DNA of 64,000 nt from a virus (Duplodnaviria; Heunggongvirae; Uroviricota; Caudoviricetes), in the IMG/VR virus record IMGVR_UViG_3300045988_162656. One strand, given 5' to 3'. Below, in pieces: positions 3,213 to 10,368 of the stretch (the first letter of the stretch is position 1; the number at the start of each line of letters is the position of its first letter). A program made the position numbers and the translations under genes. The notes below the pieces were generated by a model. That model saw only the letters and a program-made list of their open reading frames with translations. It was not told the origin of the DNA and made no database searches.

Positions 3213-4898
3213 TCATTTAACGCGTTTGAAAACGTATACGCTGACTGTGATCCCTGTGTCTTCAAACTCGTTGGTAAACGACTTCCCTCTGGCATAAACG
3301 TAATTATCCATCGTCATCCAGTCCAGTATTGGCGCAGTGCCCGGCAATACTGCTACAAGACGCCCGCCGACTTTCAGATGCCCCAGCGCAGCCAGCGTGT
3401 GCTCTCTATGACGACCAAGCGAGTACGGCGGGTTCATAACGATTTTGTCGAACTGATAACCTGCGTTGTCCTCAGACCACTTTATGAAGTCGCAGCAAAT
3501 CGTGTTCGTATACCCTTTTCCACGCAGGATATCAGCGAAGAGAGGTGCGATTTCTATGCAGGTAACATCTTCCAGATCGGCGTTAATATAGGCCAGAAGA
3601 TCCCCACGTCCGGCTTGAGGCTCCAACAGCTTCTCACCAGGCTTCAATTCAGTGGCTCTGGCAACGTACTCAGCAATCAAGCGTGGGGTAGGGTAGAACT
3701 GGTGTGATTTTGTATCCGGTATTAAACCGGTAGCCACAATCGTATTTAGCGTATGGCCGATCTCATACGGGAACTGCCAGTGCTTTTTCTCCTGCACGCC
3801 GCCAATGAAGCTCAGTGTGCGCTCAAGCTCTTCCACCTGCGACTTCTGGAGAGCTGAATCAGAGAAGTACCATACGCCTTTGTCTTTGCTCAATCGCCCG
3901 TCACGAAGCGCAGTGCGAACCGGCACGGAGATCGTCTTCTGGATTAACCCGAACTGCTTTGGTGCCCGTGTTTTTGGCGCAGTTCGGCATGGCGCGGGGA
4001 TTGCAGCAGGCATACTGTAAGCCAGCACCTCATTCAACTTCCAGGCCACGTCAGGATGTATTTCAAAGTGAACGTTGCCGTTCTTGAACATCTTCACGCG
4101 CATCAGATTTCCATCGACGTTCATCCAGTCACCGGTCTGGCAGTCGTTTGCCCGATACGCAGCTGATAGCACCTCAGCAGTGCGGTTGATGGTAATAAAT
4201 TCTTTGTGCGCGAAGAAATGAAGCAAGACACGCAGATCGTCGATGTAGTCCTCTTTGCGATAGTTCACGCTAACGCTGTCACGCCAGAAATCAGAAATGC
4301 AGTCAGCGATTATCAGACGCTCGCTGAAACCGTTTGTCTTATTTGTCTTGTGCGCAGGACTCAGCGCCTTAAACAAGCCATACACGCGCTCAGAGAGATA
4401 TTTGTGCCTGTCATTCAGCAAATTAAGCATCGTTGGTATGACCGTTTCTGCTTTGAACTCCGGTACACCAACGAACTCTTTAACCTTCATCTGATAGCCG
4501 GTTCTGTCAGTTTTGATGACTTCCTGCTTGCCCTCGATAAATAGCTCACGCCACTCGTCGCGACGGGAAGCTGGCATGATCAGCAGAACGTTAGTCATAT
4601 CCGTAACCTTCCTCCAGTACTCGGCCCAAATATTCTGTTTCACCCATTCCAGATCGACGTTATCCAGCCAGACTCGATTCAAACGTGAGCGATCTTCATC
4701 TGGTCGGTGGTTTAGTCGAAGCAGGCGATTAATCATGTTGTGGCGTTCATCGCCATAAACGAAGTCGTGTACCTGATACATGAAGGAGATCTCTTTCTCG
4801 CACTCGGCCACAATTTCGTGGATGACGTTCATTTCCTGTCGATAGTCGATAGCAGTGTTTGAGCTGGCATCGCCCATGATGGAAAGGGCTGTATTCAT
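3213..4898 (-). CDS. putative N6-adenine DNA methyltransferase with large N-terminal domain of unknown function
   Basis: C-terminal third carries LEPQAGRGDL (motif I-like) followed by NPPY (motif IV), the order seen in N6-adenine MTases; N-terminal ~350 aa unrecognised. Confidence 0.6.
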   Translation of the reverse strand: MNTALSIMGDASSNTAIDYRQEMNVIHEIVAECEKEISFMYQVHDFVYGDERHNMINRLLRLNHRPDEDRSRLNRVWLDNVDLEWVKQNIWAEYWRKVTDMTNVLLIMPASRRDEWRELFIEGKQEVIKTDRTGYQMKVKEFVGVPEFKAETVIPTMLNLLNDRHKYLSERVYGLFKALSPAHKTNKTNGFSERLIIADCISDFWRDSVSVNYRKEDYIDDLRVLLHFFAHKEFITINRTAEVLSAAYRANDCQTGDWMNVDGNLMRVKMFKNGNVHFEIHPDVAWKLNEVLAYSMPAAIPAPCRTAPKTRAPKQFGLIQKTISVPVRTALRDGRLSKDKGVWYFSDSALQKSQVEELERTLSFIGGVQEKKHWQFPYEIGHTLNTIVATGLIPDTKSHQFYPTPRLIAEYVARATELKPGEKLLEPQAGRGDLLAYINADLEDVTCIEIAPLFADILRGKGYTNTICCDFIKWSEDNAGYQFDKIVMNPPYSLGRHREHTLAALGHLKVGGRLVAVLPGTAPILDWMTMDNYVYARGKSFTNEFEDTGITVSVYVFKRVK

Positions 4899-5001
4899 AA
4901 TTGCACCATTAAGAAATGATTTGTTTAATGATGCAATTATTTCAAAAATAAAAAGGTGCTAAATAGAAATTAACAGGCAATACTTAAAATAAAGGCATTG
5001 A

Positions 5002-5676
5002 CTAATCATACTTGGATGTATTTATAACCAGGACTTTATTTGTATATAGTTTTTTTACATTCCATGTAACATTACTTGAATACCATTCACCATTATATAT
5101 TTGGTTTCCCGTTGCGCCTGTCATTGTTACGTATACAGGTCTGTCGTAAGGTGTTCGTCTATAGTTATATACTCCAACCATTGCAGGCATTATCGCACAC
5201 GGGTATCCCATATTTATGGTAAATTGAGGATTTGTAATAGTGATAATCTCTGCATCAAGGGGCATCATCTCACCGTGATATACCATTTTACCTGCGCTAT
5301 TATACATGGCAATACCATATCCTGAATGTGGTAACACCATATCAGAAAAAGCATAAACTGTTATCGTTCCGGGGTTTCCTCCAACCTGATTCAGTCTGAG
5401 AACATTATACCCATCTCTAAATTCATGAACGAACATCATATTCGCCTTATTACTGCTTTTTATAAAGAAAAAACATGATTTGTTCGACGGTATTGAAGTC
5501 TTAAAAACAGAACCTTTAGACGTGGACATTGTCCCCCTATTAATCAAATTTTGCGGTGTAAATTCTGGACTCATCCACACATTACCATTTGACTGAGTAA
5601 TTGACATCCCGAACATTATTGTTATCCCCAATATGTATATATATAAGATCCAAGTCCCTTGTATAAATTTGACCAA
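5002..5676 (-). CDS. hypothetical protein in AT-rich island (hydrophobic N-terminal segment)
   Basis: ORF track; region 4900-5950 is visibly AT-richer than its flanks; overlaps ORF 5622..5903 in another frame at a TA-repeat tract. Confidence 0.35.
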   Translation of the reverse strand: MVKFIQGTWILYIYILGITIMFGMSITQSNGNVWMSPEFTPQNLINRGTMSTSKGSVFKTSIPSNKSCFFFIKSSNKANMMFVHEFRDGYNVLRLNQVGGNPGTITVYAFSDMVLPHSGYGIAMYNSAGKMVYHGEMMPLDAEIITITNPQFTINMGYPCAIMPAMVGVYNYRRTPYDRPVYVTMTGATGNQIYNGEWYSSNVTWNVKKLYTNKVLVINTSKYD

Positions 5677-5903
5677 CTTACTGTATTGCCGTTAATAGTG
5701 ATAGTTGGTGTAGGTATATTTACATGGTTATCGTTATTTAAAGGCATCAATGAGCACACAGCATGTAATGATTTGCCAGGTGGTGGATTTGGGTAAGTCT
5801 TAGAGCCTGACGTGGTTGTAAATCGATCAAGAAAAAAAATAGGAGTAAGGAAGCCGGTAACGTTAACTCCCTTATTATTGTAGATCCCTGTACCGTATGC
5901 CAT
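5622..5903 (-). CDS. hypothetical protein in AT-rich island (possibly the N-terminal part of a frameshifted gene)
   Basis: ORF track; overlaps 5002..5676 by ~55 nt at a short TA repeat. Confidence 0.3.
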   Translation of the reverse strand: MAYGTGIYNNKGVNVTGFLTPIFFLDRFTTTSGSKTYPNPPPGKSLHAVCSLMPLNNDNHVNIPTPTITINGNTVSWSNLYKGLGSYIYTYWG

Positions 5904-5957
5904 TTTTCATCCTTGTTTTTATCAACATAATATGGCCGATCATGCGGCCATATCAGA

Positions 5958-6527
5958 TCAATTAGAGCTTTGAAAGGCTTTGTGTGGCTGTGTTGCGAGG
6001 TTATGTCGATGGCTTAACTCACGCATCATGTCTTCAAGGCGACTCTTTGTGTCGTCGAGTTGGTCAGCCATTGCTCCTAAAAGCTGACGAACTACCATCG
6101 GATCGTCGCTGTTTAGTGATGGCATTTTATAACCCGCCTGAGAAGACATCAGATTGAATGCTGACATCAACATCGTTAGAGAGGATTTAAGCCCGGCAAT
6201 TTCACGATCTTTGCTGGCAATAATCGTCTCACTTTTGTTACTGTCATGAGTTCCTTGAGTCTCGATCACCATATCCAAAGTCTCTTGCAACTTATCAGCT
6301 CTCTGTTTTTCAGCAAGATAATGAACACCGAAATGATGTGCTAAAGCTACAACCTGAGTTGGCTCTTCAAAGGTGGACTCAAAATTAAGTGCTGTAACCA
6401 CTCTCTCAAAAATGGAAACGTCTTCTATTCCTCGAAGAATGGCTAACATTTTGACAAGTTCATTAGCATCCATTTCTTCGAATAGGGCGTTTTGTTCATC
6501 AGCTATTGCTTTGCATTTCTCGCACAT
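5958..6527 (-). CDS. hypothetical protein
   Basis: ORF track; SD AAGGAAAACAT upstream, preceded by AAACAAGTTGTTTTC palindrome. Confidence 0.5.
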   Translation of the reverse strand: MCEKCKAIADEQNALFEEMDANELVKMLAILRGIEDVSIFERVVTALNFESTFEEPTQVVALAHHFGVHYLAEKQRADKLQETLDMVIETQGTHDSNKSETIIASKDREIAGLKSSLTMLMSAFNLMSSQAGYKMPSLNSDDPMVVRQLLGAMADQLDDTKSRLEDMMRELSHRHNLATQPHKAFQSSN

Positions 6528-6666: not shown

Positions 6667-6825
6667 TTAACACGTTGCTTTACGGACTAGCGGATAAGCG
6701 AAGTAGATCGCCAGACCAATGAGGACGCCATCAGAAATGACAGACATCATCTTTCCCGTAAAATCCACCAACACCGCCATCACCAGAAGAGCAATGACGG
6801 TCACAAGCCGGAATCTCTCAAGCAT
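6667..6825 (-). CDS. small hydrophobic protein (~52 aa), translationally coupled to the TerB-like gene
   Basis: Hand-translated (MLERFRLVTVIALLVMAVLVDFTG...); ATG overlaps upstream stop as TAATG; not in ORF track. Confidence 0.3.
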   Translation of the reverse strand: MLERFRLVTVIALLVMAVLVDFTGKMMSVISDGVLIGLAIYFAYPLVRKATC

Positions 6826-7250
6826 TAGAGATAAACATCCAGTGACAACTGAAGCGCCTGGGCGATCTTTTTCAGCGCCTGCTCTTCTGGTTCATCAATG
6901 CCGTCTTGGTCGGCAATATCAAGGCACAGACAAAGTACATCTACTGCATCATCAGTCCCGGCCACATCCGCCAGCTCACGTAAAGCCTGGGCATTAGCAC
7001 GGCGCGGTGAGGCTTCGTATTGAGCGCGGATATTGGCGCTCATCTGGGCAATCTCACCAGCAAAAGGAGAAAATGCAGGCAGAGCTGCAATTGTTTTCTC
7101 AAGAATGGAAATTTCTTTTGCATCGCATGTACCGTTGGCATAGGAGATCATGTACCCACCCCACACGGTGGCTTCAACCGCATCACGGTTCTCCATTTTT
7201 TTGACTTCGATAACTGCTTTACGAGTTTTCTTTTTGAAGAAACCTAACAT
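6825..7250 (-). CDS. TerB-like domain protein
   Basis: Overall resemblance to TerB-family proteins (helical, acidic C-terminal region DQDGIDEPEEQALKKIAQAL); conserved initiation region upstream. Confidence 0.5.
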   Translation of the reverse strand: MLGFFKKKTRKAVIEVKKMENRDAVEATVWGGYMISYANGTCDAKEISILEKTIAALPAFSPFAGEIAQMSANIRAQYEASPRRANAQALRELADVAGTDDAVDVLCLCLDIADQDGIDEPEEQALKKIAQALQLSLDVYL

Positions 7251-9587: not shown

Positions 9588-9774
9588 GTTGGTTTCCTTA
9601 AAGTGGTTCATAAAATCGATTTTAAAGCGTCTGGGAAGGGGGTCTAGTGGATTCTGTAGTGATGTTCAGGTCTGGAGTCTCTGATACAAAACAGCCTGCT
9701 TCCGTATATTAATAATTAATATGTAGTTATTTATATATATACAGAAGCAGGCTAATTACAGACGCCAGAACAAA

Positions 9775-10368
9775 CTAAGCAGCCTTCTTTGATGGTCTTT
9801 TTTTCCTGATCACATTCGCAGGATCATACCCTCCCAGACTTTTCATGACGTCCAAAGGGATCTTGCTTATAGAGTGCCCAGCGTCCTGACAGAATCCTCG
9901 AAAAACAACGAGCATACTGCCACCGGGGTTGATGTTTACTTCTACCTGACCCAAATTGACGTCAGGCTCGACAAACGCTACGCGGCCACCAGACAGAATA
10001 ATCGTCTCATTCGCATACTCTGTTGCACGCTCATACCACTTTGTATCGAGGGATTGAGGAATTAGCATCACTGTAGTAACTCCGCGAGCCTGCTCACGTA
10101 TAGCAGCATCAATCCAGGGGGAGATTTTGGAGTAGGGTGGATTGAGGAAGGCAATTGTACCTGGCTGTCCCCATTCAGATTTCAAAGCATCACGCTCAAT
10201 GCCTATGAAATTAGGCAGCTTTGCGTTGTCCTTGTTGCAGGCAACGTCAACATCAAATGTCACTCCAAGATAACGTTGAATGGCAGAAAACAGCCAATCA
10301 GGTGTTCTCCAGAGGTCACGAAGAGAGTTGTCGCGCTTTCGCTGTTTGATTTTTTCGGCTGCAATCAT
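9775..10368 (-). CDS. phage-type DNA N6-adenine methyltransferase (Dam-like)
   Basis: WRTPDWLF motif and FLNPPYS catalytic motif. Confidence 0.75.
   Translation of the reverse strand: MIAAEKIKQRKRDNSLRDLWRTPDWLFSAIQRYLGVTFDVDVACNKDNAKLPNFIGIERDALKSEWGQPGTIAFLNPPYSKISPWIDAAIREQARGVTTVMLIPQSLDTKWYERATEYANETIILSGGRVAFVEPDVNLGQVEVNINPGGSMLVVFRGFCQDAGHSISKIPLDVMKSLGGYDPANVIRKKRPSKKAA

Follow-up and report, generated by a model that had tools for sequence, protein, structure and literature searches.

The closest described counterpart of the locus studied here is the two-gene module of phage T1 and SSU5, in which a small gene comes first and is tightly coupled to a gene of about 200 codons, with a Cor-like lipoprotein alongside and a position in the tail cluster. 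Elsewhere among siphoviruses the module directly follows the gene for the tail-tip protein J, or comes after tail-fibre genes located downstream of J. Its proposed mode of action is docking on the conserved C-terminal domain of J and binding of the terminal outer-membrane receptor. Alleles of the T1-type J-adjacent locus were matched to receptors by Maffei et al. (2021, PMC8594841), and the "RBP locus" assignment of the ST32/ST31-type family is a genotype-receptor correlation rather than direct binding (PMC8594841). Deletion of each of the homologues in the Stx2 podophage Sp5, ORF72 (92 aa) and ORF73 (205 aa), placed both outside the nine genes required for plaque formation or lysogenisation on K-12. 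A further point of comparison is provided by receptor-binding proteins with a DUF6453 domain, namely Rtp44 and the phage Oekolampad protein that binds LptDE (PDB 9rpt, PMC12685063), which are single chains. Two other kinds of system bear on the same stretch of DNA: the M.TaqI-like gamma-type N6-adenine DNA methyltransferases, in which motif I precedes motif IV (NPPY) and a target-recognition domain lies at the C-terminus, and the simple-sequence contingency loci, such as TA-repeat promoters and dinucleotide-repeat frame switches, in which a dinucleotide repeat is placed at a gene junction.

We analysed a stretch of 64,000 nucleotides (the window) in which a methylase gene adjoins an AT-rich island of two genes. 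These genes belong to the known tail-tip module, with a probable receptor-binding role, and adjoin the methylase rather than the tail genes. Our main reading, to which we give a probability of about 0.65, is that the methylase and the island are unrelated neighbours: an orphan DUF4942 methylase, and a horizontally acquired tail-tip cassette giving a receptor-binding function in trans. The parts of the locus are ordinary, and the relocation of the tail-tip module is the interesting part.

An AT-rich insertion with two intact genes

The window derives from an SSU5-like phage-plasmid of E. coli/Shigella, and shares 100% identity with p09EL50 (O104:H4). All genes of the methylase and island region are carried by the minus strand. 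Transcription therefore reaches the island before the methylase gene, so that the island lies upstream, where a first, sequence-only reading had placed it downstream. The same reading had noted an AT-richer stretch at 4.9-5.95 kb, which is real: the island (4899-5957) has a GC content of 35.5% against 45.6% for the window, the lowest value among windows of 1,059 nt and about 3.4 SD under the mean. The features of the island and its edges are as follows.

4897..4940, minus strand: 16-bp inverted repeat, forming a hairpin in which the Shine-Dalgarno sequence of the methylase gene and its start codon are paired
5002..5616, minus strand: encodes an all-beta protein of 204 aa (phrog_425), corresponding to the larger, C-terminal part of a split tail-tip module that is receptor-binding-protein-like
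5622..5903, minus strand: encodes a protein of 93 aa (phrog_557), corresponding to the smaller, N-terminal part of the same split module
5636..5645, no strand: (TA)5 tract, part of the final codons of the 93-aa gene (Y-I-Y-T)
5930..5953, no strand: perfect inverted repeat ATATGGCCG-N6-CGGCCATAT, separating the cassette from the backbone gene of 189 aa
5958..6527, minus strand: backbone gene of 189 aa, homologue of SSU5_094 (60% identity), phrog_5508, at the upstream edge of the insertion

In SSU5, in the Klebsiella and Cronobacter elements, and in pECOH89 and pRHBSTW-00905_2, a gene of about 190 codons directly adjoins the methylase gene, with a gap of about 125-140 nt, and alignment of the intergenic regions placed a terminator hairpin in this gap in SSU5, Klebsiella and Cronobacter. 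The 1.06-kb island is thus an insertion, not found in the SSU5, Klebsiella and Cronobacter relatives, and its boundaries are tight, enclosing genes only. We suggest that a horizontally acquired two-gene cassette entered the intergenic region upstream of the methylase gene and replaced the terminator of the relatives. The inverted repeat at 5930..5953 stands where the island-less relatives have a GC-rich terminator, and is present in both E. coli lineages. At the other edge, the 4897..4940 repeat has a predicted RNA fold of -16.5 kcal/mol (z = -3.5) and is preserved as a perfect 16/16 repeat in the 88% lineage. Within the island we found no consensus terminator, and promoter-like sites were not above chance.

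The two island genes are intact, independent and under purifying selection. An identical record in RefSeq has them as two separate CDS (5002..5616 and 5622..5903), and the conserved start of the 204-aa gene is the ATG at 5616, 5 nt past the TAA stop (5624-5622) of the 93-aa gene, with its GGGGA Shine-Dalgarno sequence sitting within the end of the 93-aa ORF. The overlap at a TA repeat that had been reported for the two ORFs arises only if the 204-aa ORF is extended to a TTG at 5676, and the real starts leave a 5-nt gap; this in-frame upstream extension is not conserved, and amounts to 25, 19 or 15 codons by lineage. Both genes are full length in all of the 24 phage-plasmid loci, with dN/dS values of 0.08-0.14, and the suggestion that a pseudogene is present is not supported. 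The same layout, with the small gene first and a gap of 2-11 nt, recurs in more than 270 phage records. A scan of species-representative genomes returned one 254-bp contig of Xanthomonas pisi, which is probably contamination.

Affiliation of the pair with the tail-tip module

By sequence, the island pair is best placed in the family of T1 ST32/ST31, N15 gp22/gp23 and SSU5_023/024, a module found near the tail protein J. The 93-aa protein matches phrog_557 (1.4e-29) and the 204-aa protein phrog_425 (1.2e-68), and profile searches connect the 93-aa family to SSU5_023 (2e-11) and T1 ST32 (4e-5), and the 204-aa family to SSU5_024 (3e-17) and T1 ST31 (5e-8). The 93-aa protein is 70% identical to JenP2 gp22 and 49% to atuna gp16, and the window allele as a whole is nearest to that of the Nonagvirus JenP2 (79% and 70% identity), rather than to that of SSU5 itself (26-28%).

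The genomic context of the relatives is consistent with this placement. In atuna and JenP2 the pair lies directly beside J and is convergent with it, in the same layout as rtp45-rtp44 in phage Rtp; in T1 it lies downstream of J, with cor; in SSU5 it follows the tail-fibre genes, with cor; and in Stx phages it is found beside lom. The window pair shares with the T1/SSU5 module the gene order, the tight coupling and a homologous C-terminal domain of J, the last 250 aa of J in the window lineage (encoded outside the window) being 33-36% identical to the J C-termini of T1, atuna, JenP2 and Rtp. It differs from that module in lacking Cor and in lying about 60 kb from J: tblastn searches of the window with SSU5 Cor, atuna gp15 and Rtp45 found no Cor/Rtp45-like exclusion lipoprotein. 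As separate observations, cor provides a link to FhuA for the related alleles of T1 and SSU5, and the Warwickvirus allele is found in JLBYU10 and JLBYU19.

We additionally identified, by exhaustive profile search, proteins of about 310-325 aa in which the 204-aa profile aligns from residue ~95-115 onwards. Alignment of these fused proteins with hhalign placed the 93-aa family at residues 15-78 (95.5% probability) and the 204-aa family at residues 108-252 (99.4%), and fused forms adjoin J in the Pantoea phage Vid5 and the Yersinia phage P400. In these profile alignments the 93-aa/204-aa pair is colinear with the fused chains of about 315 aa.

The AF2 model of the 204-aa protein, which was built from only 15 sequences, has its best structural match in the LptD-binding protein of phage Oekolampad. 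The BFVD viral structure library returned uncharacterised phage proteins only, with TM-scores of 0.4-0.5. The window pair is split where the DUF6453 receptor-binding proteins are single chains, and has no significant sequence relationship to them; LptD binding is not to be presumed for the window allele. A sequence link between the pair and DUF6453 was considered and dropped, as the Pfam family gave no match to the pair even at E <= 10 (against 379 bits for Rtp44), and hhalign against the DUF6453 receptor-binding proteins gave only weak, local and non-significant matches (E 8e-4 to 0.26).

Two methylases and their orphan status

The methylase next to the island and a second enzyme in the window have the following features.

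3213..4898, minus strand: 561-aa orphan methyltransferase gene (ORF), orthologue of SSU5_095; phrog_6263 "DNA methyltransferase", 2e-298
3213..3716, minus strand: catalytic methyltransferase domain, residues ~395-561, with QFYPTP, motif I LEPQAGRGDL and motif IV NPPY
4014..4481, minus strand: DUF4942 match, residues 140-295 (PF13708, 1.1e-19, 71.3 bits, cut-off 25)
9775..10368, minus strand: Dam-like N6-adenine methyltransferase of 197 aa, the second orphan enzyme (PF05869, 5.4e-38)

The N-terminal ~390 aa of the 561-aa protein contain the DUF4942 match and are followed by a TaqI-like N6-adenine methyltransferase domain at the C-terminus. This C-terminal domain (~165 aa) had been recognised from the ORF itself, and its motifs I and IV are intact. 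Across 31 homologues (33-92% identity), A429 and G430 of motif I are invariant and G432 is nearly so, and N489-P490-P491 of motif IV are invariant, with residue 492 being Y or F. Motif I aligns with that of M.TaqI, motif IV comes after it, and both the fold and the sequence of the domain match N6-adenine methyltransferases; the AF2 model (pLDDT 83.5) has METTL5, an rRNA methyltransferase, as its nearest fold match. In contrast to the M.TaqI-like enzymes, the 561-aa protein has no C-terminal target-recognition domain, there being only ~70 residues after motif IV, and has instead the ~390-aa N-terminal region with DUF4942. Speculatively, this region may replace the target-recognition domain of TaqI-like enzymes.

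The sequence-only reading had called the N-terminal domain unrecognised and the gene a methyltransferase fusion. Neither description holds, as residues 140-295 correspond to Pfam DUF4942, a family without known function, at a score above its cut-off, and DUF4942 plus methyltransferase is the standard architecture of the DUF4942 family; the protein is a member of a known family and not a novel fusion. Single-sequence and profile searches with residues 1-390 found no sequence relative in the PDB, with marginal matches to ZorA and ISWI (E ~0.3-1). Our literature search on DUF4942 returned passing mentions only, and one for an SSU5 methylase or methylome, or for biochemical data on m6A, returned nothing useful.

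Hundreds of SSU5-like plasmids encode the 561-aa protein, and IncHI2 plasmids encode relatives that align along its whole length at about 30% identity. The gene for the 561-aa protein is 90% identical in nucleotide sequence to SSU5_095; it belongs to the core of SSU5-like phage-plasmids and is inherited vertically. The stand-alone protein YdcA, encoded in the leading region of IncF plasmids, is 31% identical to the C-terminal domain of the 561-aa protein. Two other affiliations were rejected. An enzyme of the M.EcoGIX type, a single-strand-specific plasmid family, is unrelated, M.EcoGIX being a beta-class enzyme with DPPY; and a split DUF4942 enzyme in IncF plasmids did not hold, since the neighbour of YdcA, YdbA, is a DUF3560 protein without similarity to the N-terminal region, and only YdcA is related.

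The Dam-like assignment of the gene at 9775 was likewise upheld, with scores above the curated cut-offs for PF05869 (130.8 bits, cut-off 28.1) and TIGR01712 (113.6 bits, cut-off 97.05), and conservation of the gene extends to 785 plasmid records. The annotation shows no restriction endonuclease in the window part and the adjoining 11 kb (~75 kb of the identical 110-kb record), nor beside the homologous methylases in the flanks of four loci, in SSU5, Klebsiella, Cronobacter and IncHI2 plasmids; the orphan status of both enzymes is thus a matter of annotation, with many of the neighbouring genes being hypothetical. PADLOC defence-system models match the methylase domains only. The earlier observation of two methylases and no visible restriction partner stands within this scope. 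With the catalytic motifs of both methyltransferases intact and no annotated endonuclease, protective or regulatory orphan methylation is a reasonable default reading for both enzymes, which most likely methylate the DNA of the element itself and would thereby blunt host restriction or regulate the element.

Relocation and possible function of the cassette

The tail-cluster position of the module is found in atuna, JenP2, T1, SSU5 and pECOH89. In the window element a 170-aa ORF and a holin gene come after the tail fibre gene, and the cassette sits about 60 kb away from the tail genes, within a block of leftward genes of early type. We examined the two sites in six SSU5-like elements and found the module at one or the other in all six, and never at both: the window lineage, Cyrano/pLF82 and pMTY18780-3 have the island copy and no tail-cluster copy, and SSU5, pECOH89 and pRHBSTW-00905_2 have the tail-cluster copy and no island. 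In the Escherichia lineage of the window, the tail-cluster copy is gone, and the ectopic copy, which is nearest to the JenP2 allele, is the only one. The ectopic pair would then supply the receptor-binding function of the tail tip in trans.

A broader form of this reading is possible, and we put it forward tentatively. The pair may be a portable, free-standing host-range cassette, active in trans from any position by docking on a conserved C-terminal domain of tail-tip proteins, one common to siphoviruses (T1-like phages, Queuovirinae, SSU5-like phage-plasmids) and to the Stx phages with short tails (Sp5 ORF71). Temperate elements would thereby gain an exchangeable, possibly second, receptor in the outer membrane, and the target of the window allele would be a receptor as yet assigned to no phage RBP family.

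We consider it unlikely that the cassette acts outside the virion as a moron, that is, as an accessory pair expressed in the lysogen (for example in exclusion or host-surface modification) and carried passively from phage to phage. In PHROGs the category of phrog_425 is "moron, auxiliary metabolic gene and host takeover", and such a role would suit an AT-rich cassette with tight, gene-only boundaries that lies among early and accessory genes, as well as the position beside lom in Stx phages and the dispensability of the Sp5 homologues. However, neither protein has a signal peptide, a lipobox or a hydrophobic segment (maximum KD(15) of 1.21, against 1.9-2.3 for Cor-type controls), synteny with J extends across Drexlerviridae, Queuovirinae and SSU5, the 204-aa model has a receptor-binding protein as its best structural match, and each SSU5-like element examined has exactly one copy.

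Less probable again is that the pair serves the tail tip or side fibres as an adaptor, or helps in their assembly, without itself contacting the receptor. The N-terminal hairpin motifs are the most conserved parts of both proteins, which fits docking better than receptor contact, and the J proteins of SSU5-like elements are long (1,385-1,575 aa) and might contact a receptor on their own; the non-essentiality of the Sp5 homologues points the same way. Against these points, the module occurs as discrete alleles on a background of similar J C-termini, the pattern to be expected of a specificity determinant, and the 204-aa model resembles a receptor-contacting protein.

Finally, the TA repeat that had been noted at ~5635-5650 exists, as a (TA)5 tract at 5636-5645, and (TA)5 tracts are in excess in the window (2 found, 0.03 predicted by shuffles). 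The slipped-strand phase variation proposed for it is contradicted by the tract itself, which has the same length in 12 records (7 near-identical plasmids, 4 viral contigs and 1 metagenome contig, the five contigs being read from a 33-nt match that corresponds to the 10-nt tract) and is broken by substitutions elsewhere; an invariant tract, together with independence of the two genes, had been named beforehand as the outcome that would refute switching. It reads TACATATACACATAC in the 88% lineage and TATATTTATACATTC in Stx phages, by synonymous or conservative changes that keep the peptide S-Y-I-Y-T-Y/F-W-G, and so the repeat is not maintained as a repeat in these related lineages. The tract encodes the conserved peptide Tyr-Ile-Tyr-Thr-Tyr, and the TA run follows from the choice of tyrosine and isoleucine codons where the gene is AT-rich; unlike the repeats of contingency loci, it has 5 units, is coding and does not vary. 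That a single gene has been broken or is switched by TA slippage, as a phase-variable locus or pseudogene, is therefore very improbable, even with (TA)5 sitting at the junction, single-chain homologues of about 315 aa existing elsewhere and an intergenic (TA)n tract elsewhere in the element varying in length, as the split layout has its own Shine-Dalgarno sequence and ATG in more than 270 phage genomes, both halves have a dN/dS of about 0.1, and gain or loss of TA units would not yield a protein resembling the fused homologues.

Among clinical E. coli, Shigella, Salmonella and Klebsiella, SSU5-like phage-plasmids are a frequent finding, and some of them carry resistance genes. The methylase is ordinary, and its target motif would still be of value, as the family is widespread on phage-plasmids and IncHI2 plasmids. 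If the island encodes a tail-tip receptor binder, it helps to set which bacteria these elements infect. Host-range modules would then be replaceable at an ectopic site, beyond the tail cluster, and annotation pipelines and host-range predictors that scan only beside the tail genes would miss the island. The database names "outer membrane protein" and "membrane associated protein" are misleading, as neither protein has a membrane-targeting feature. The relationship between split and fused forms, together with the structural link to an LptD-binding protein, provides a testable framework for a large uncharacterised family of phage proteins.

An AT-rich insertion upstream of a methyltransferase gene

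The stretch from 4899 to 5957 has a GC content of 35.5%, against 45.6% for the window, the lowest value among all 1,059-nt segments, confirming the visibly AT-richer composition noted in the sequence-only reading. The features concerned are:

3213..4898, minus strand, ORF: 561-aa methyltransferase gene
5002..5616, minus strand: 204-aa gene, second of the island pair
5622..5903, minus strand: 93-aa gene, first ORF of the pair, ending ...S-Y-I-Y-T-Y-W-G-stop
5636-5645: (TA)5 tract, reading TAT-ATA-TAT-ACA in the frame of the 93-aa gene
5930-5953: perfect 9-bp inverted repeat
6667-7250: genes for a TerB-domain protein (141 aa, PF05099) and a DUF3927 membrane peptide (52 aa)
9775..10368, minus strand: second methyltransferase, phage Dam-like, standard type

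All genes in the first 12 kb of the window lie on the minus strand, so that the island, earlier placed downstream of the methyltransferase gene, is upstream of it in the direction of transcription. The TerB-domain and DUF3927 genes, annotated as P1 TciA-like and TciB-like in phage Cyrano, are a conserved pair of the backbone, lying just upstream of the studied region.

In SSU5, the Klebsiella and Cronobacter phage-plasmids, and the E. coli plasmids pECOH89 and pRHBSTW-00905_2, the methyltransferase gene is directly preceded by a 190-aa gene, homologous to 5958..6527 of the window (60% identity). In the three of these that were aligned (SSU5, Klebsiella and Cronobacter), a gap of ~125-140 nt with a GC-rich terminator hairpin separates the two genes. 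This terminator is gone from the window, where the region holds, in order, the 9-bp inverted repeat, the two genes, and the conserved ~85 nt before the methyltransferase start. The island is a genuine feature and arose by insertion.

Over 3.6 kb around this region, the window is 100% identical to several ~109-kb plasmids of E. coli O104:H4 (including p09EL50 of strain 2009EL-2050, and FDAARGOS_348) and Shigella sonnei, and to "Escherichia phage CMS-2020a". A larger group, including Cyrano (plasmid pLF82), shows ~94% identity. All of these are SSU5-like phage-plasmids.

The paired genes and the TA tract

The 204-aa gene starts at an ATG at 5616, 5 nt past the stop of the 93-aa gene, with a GGGGA Shine-Dalgarno sequence within the end of the latter, and RefSeq annotates the two as separate genes. 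The overlap at the TA repeat proposed in the sequence-only reading arises only from a mechanical longest-ORF rule, which extends the second ORF back to a TTG at 5676. In a comparison of 42 related loci, the layout of the junction is kept despite sequence change, with TACATATACACATAC and a 2-nt gap in a second E. coli lineage carrying the island (the 88% lineage), and TATATTTATACATTC and a 5-nt gap in Stx phages; the frame stays open for 25, 19 or 15 codons ahead of the ATG, with no conserved start. Within the near-identical lineage, all 7 plasmids, 4 viral contigs and 1 metagenome contig have the same (TA)5 length, and both ORFs are full length in 24 of 24 phage-plasmid loci (dN/dS 0.08-0.14). 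Phase variation by slippage and pseudogenisation, both suggested previously, are therefore rejected on the refuting criteria set in that reading: the tract is invariant and the ORFs are independent genes. The repeat is a coincidence of the coding sequence.

A second (TA)5 tract, at 9732-9741, is intergenic, beginning 34 nt beyond the stop of the Dam-like gene. Its length does differ between close relatives: the window, L003 and L005 have (TA)5, L004 and L006 have (TA)3, and the 88% lineage has (TA)4, within ~200 nt that are otherwise almost invariant. No consensus promoter was assigned to it. Separately, in the Stx-type locus L040 the stop of the 93-aa gene has changed from TGA to GGA, extending the ORF to 97 codons, and in two further Stx-type IMG/VR loci the 204-aa gene is truncated to 38 and 5 codons. 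Such changes amount to sporadic decay in Stx prophages, which can dispense with the pair.

With the 204-aa family as query, an exhaustive profile search recovered 117 cluster representatives, most of them 200-230 aa. In about ten representatives of 307-325 aa, the match begins only near residue 95-115, and the N-terminal ~95 residues resemble the 93-aa protein, with the common motifs F-x-x-D...GSGS(K/R)xY and SGNTVxW. In hhalign comparisons, the 93-aa family aligns to residues 15-78 of these fused proteins (95.5% probability, E 1.6e-8) and the 204-aa family to residues 108-252 (99.4%, E 3e-21). Single-chain forms adjoin the gene of the tail-tip protein J in Pantoea phage Vid5 and Yersinia phage P400, and in Pectobacterium phages the match splits into two pieces. 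These profile matches indicate that the window's two ORFs are the halves of a protein that is a single chain elsewhere. Being old, widespread and under selection, the split form does not represent a recent break.

The two methyltransferases

Residues 140-295 of the 561-aa protein match DUF4942 in Pfam (71.3 bits against a cut-off of 25), assigning the N-terminal domain, formerly taken as unrecognised, to a named family without known function. The C-terminal ~165 residues contain QFYPTP, motif I (LEPQAGRGDL) and motif IV (NPPY), with key residues invariant in an alignment of 31 homologues (33-92% identity), in agreement with the N6-adenine methyltransferase domain originally proposed. The best PDB sequence match is M.TaqI (E 0.1 with the single sequence, 7e-4 with a profile), and no solved relative resembling residues 1-390 was found in that search. 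The protein shares with gamma-class enzymes the order of motif I before motif IV, but differs from these TaqI-like enzymes in having no C-terminal target-recognition domain; we speculate that its N-terminal region supplies DNA recognition. The M.EcoGIX family was ruled out, as M.EcoGIX is a beta-class enzyme with a DPPY motif.

The gene, orthologous to SSU5_095 (90% nucleotide identity), is found across SSU5-like elements of Escherichia, Salmonella, Klebsiella, Citrobacter, Cronobacter, Enterobacter, Xenorhabdus, Providencia and Morganella, and IncHI2 conjugative plasmids carry full-length relatives of ~30% identity. YdcA, a 187-aa methyltransferase of the IncF leading region, shows 31% identity to the catalytic domain alone, indicating that this domain also circulates as a stand-alone leading-region gene. 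In one such region (L056, 3506-5477), ydbA (DUF3560, 453 aa) and ydcA, encoding this minimal enzyme, sit between an antirestriction gene and ssb, a ParB-like gene and psiA. In the window, a 16-bp inverted repeat at 4897-4940 places the Shine-Dalgarno sequence and the ATG of the 561-aa gene in a hairpin (-16.5 kcal/mol, z = -3.5), which may repress translation or serve as an operator. The repeat is perfect in the 88% lineage, and less strong in SSU5.

The Dam-like gene was found at 9775 as previously described. No restriction endonuclease is annotated in ~75 kb of the identical 110-kb RefSeq record (the window's part and the adjoining 11 kb), or beside the methyltransferase homologues in SSU5, Klebsiella, Cronobacter and IncHI2 elements, consistent with the earlier view that no restriction partner is visible. 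Self-directed methylation by two orphan enzymes is therefore a sensible reading; no methylome data were found in the literature. Both are ordinary orphan enzymes from known families.

Six-base palindromes are strongly avoided across window positions 1-64000. Eleven of 64 (GAATTC, TCTAGA, AGGCCT, CCATGG, CCTAGG, CGTACG, GAGCTC, GCATGC, GGTACC, GGCGCC and GGGCCC) are absent, each being expected 9-18 times, and observed/expected ratios fall below 0.15 for 16 of 64 palindromes, compared with 2.1% of hexamers that are not palindromes; GATC shows no such avoidance. The pattern resembles avoidance of restriction sites, complementing the methyltransferases.

The island pair and the tail-tip locus

The pair corresponds to phrog_557 ("outer membrane protein") and phrog_425 ("membrane associated protein"), names that are unfounded, since both proteins lack signal peptides, lipoboxes and hydrophobic segments. 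Phage records with the pair, always led by the small gene, number about 280-320 and include 933W-type Stx phages, Nonagvirus JenP1 and JenP2, and Warwickvirus-type T1-like phages. Contamination or wrong host labels seem to account for eleven "Campylobacter phage" records (including MG065640.1, MG065657.1 and MG065681.1) with versions from T1-like E. coli phages, and for a 254-bp contig labelled Xanthomonas pisi (L045) that encodes part of the 93-aa protein at 69% identity.

In atuna and JenP2, the pair immediately adjoins the J-like tail-tip gene, convergently, exactly as rtp45-rtp44 are arranged in phage Rtp. Rtp44-type proteins are LptD-binding receptor-binding proteins (RBPs), with a structure solved on LptDE (PMC12685063). 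The link of the pair to DUF6453, the Pfam family of Rtp44 and the Oekolampad LptD-binding RBP, is drawn from structure, genomic position and size only, sequence comparisons being not significant. In T1, the homologues ST32 and ST31 (profile E 4e-5 and 5e-8) follow J and precede the superinfection-exclusion gene cor; SSU5_023 and SSU5_024, distant homologues (28% and 26% identity; profile E 2e-11 and 3e-17), follow the tail-fibre genes and likewise precede cor. [quoted passage not shown] No Cor-type exclusion gene accompanies the island. The Warwickvirus allele is present in JLBYU10 and JLBYU19, which a passage of PMC10373560 sets against the FhuA-dependent JLBYU41, and from which we infer that these two are not FhuA-dependent. 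The homologues in the Stx2 podophage Sp5, ORF72 (92 aa) and ORF73 (205 aa), were each deleted, and neither is among the nine genes needed for K-12 infectivity.

The J of the window's lineage, encoded outside the window, is 33-36% identical over its last 250 aa to the J C-termini of T1, atuna, JenP2 and Rtp, and 81% identical to SSU5 J; its last 24 residues match the essential Sp5 tail protein ORF71. The Stx2 phage II equivalent of ORF71, the tail protein p033 of a short-tailed phage (L053, 6431-7699), has a C-terminal region in common with siphovirus J (24-27% identity to JenP2 and atuna, and 62% to the J of the window's lineage over the last 24 aa), and this likeness suggests that podoviral Stx phages may use the same docking domain.

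In the window's lineage, Cyrano and pMTY18780-3, all of which carry the island, the holin gene comes almost directly after the tail-fibre gene, with no pair there; in SSU5, pECOH89 and pRHBSTW-00905_2 the island is absent and the pair sits in the tail cluster. Exactly one copy is thus present in six of six elements. The island allele is closest to that of JenP2 (79% and 70% identity), and not to SSU5's own. We think that the island pair is this phage's own, putative tail-tip module; in the simplest reading, the resident tail-cluster module would have been lost, and a foreign allele gained at a new site, the island.

The observation in the sequence-only reading was largely real, its interpretation only partly right: the island represents a phage module of a known kind, unusual in its location. 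The useful outcomes are the pattern of relocation and mutual exclusivity, the relationship between split and fused forms, and the correction of misleading database names.
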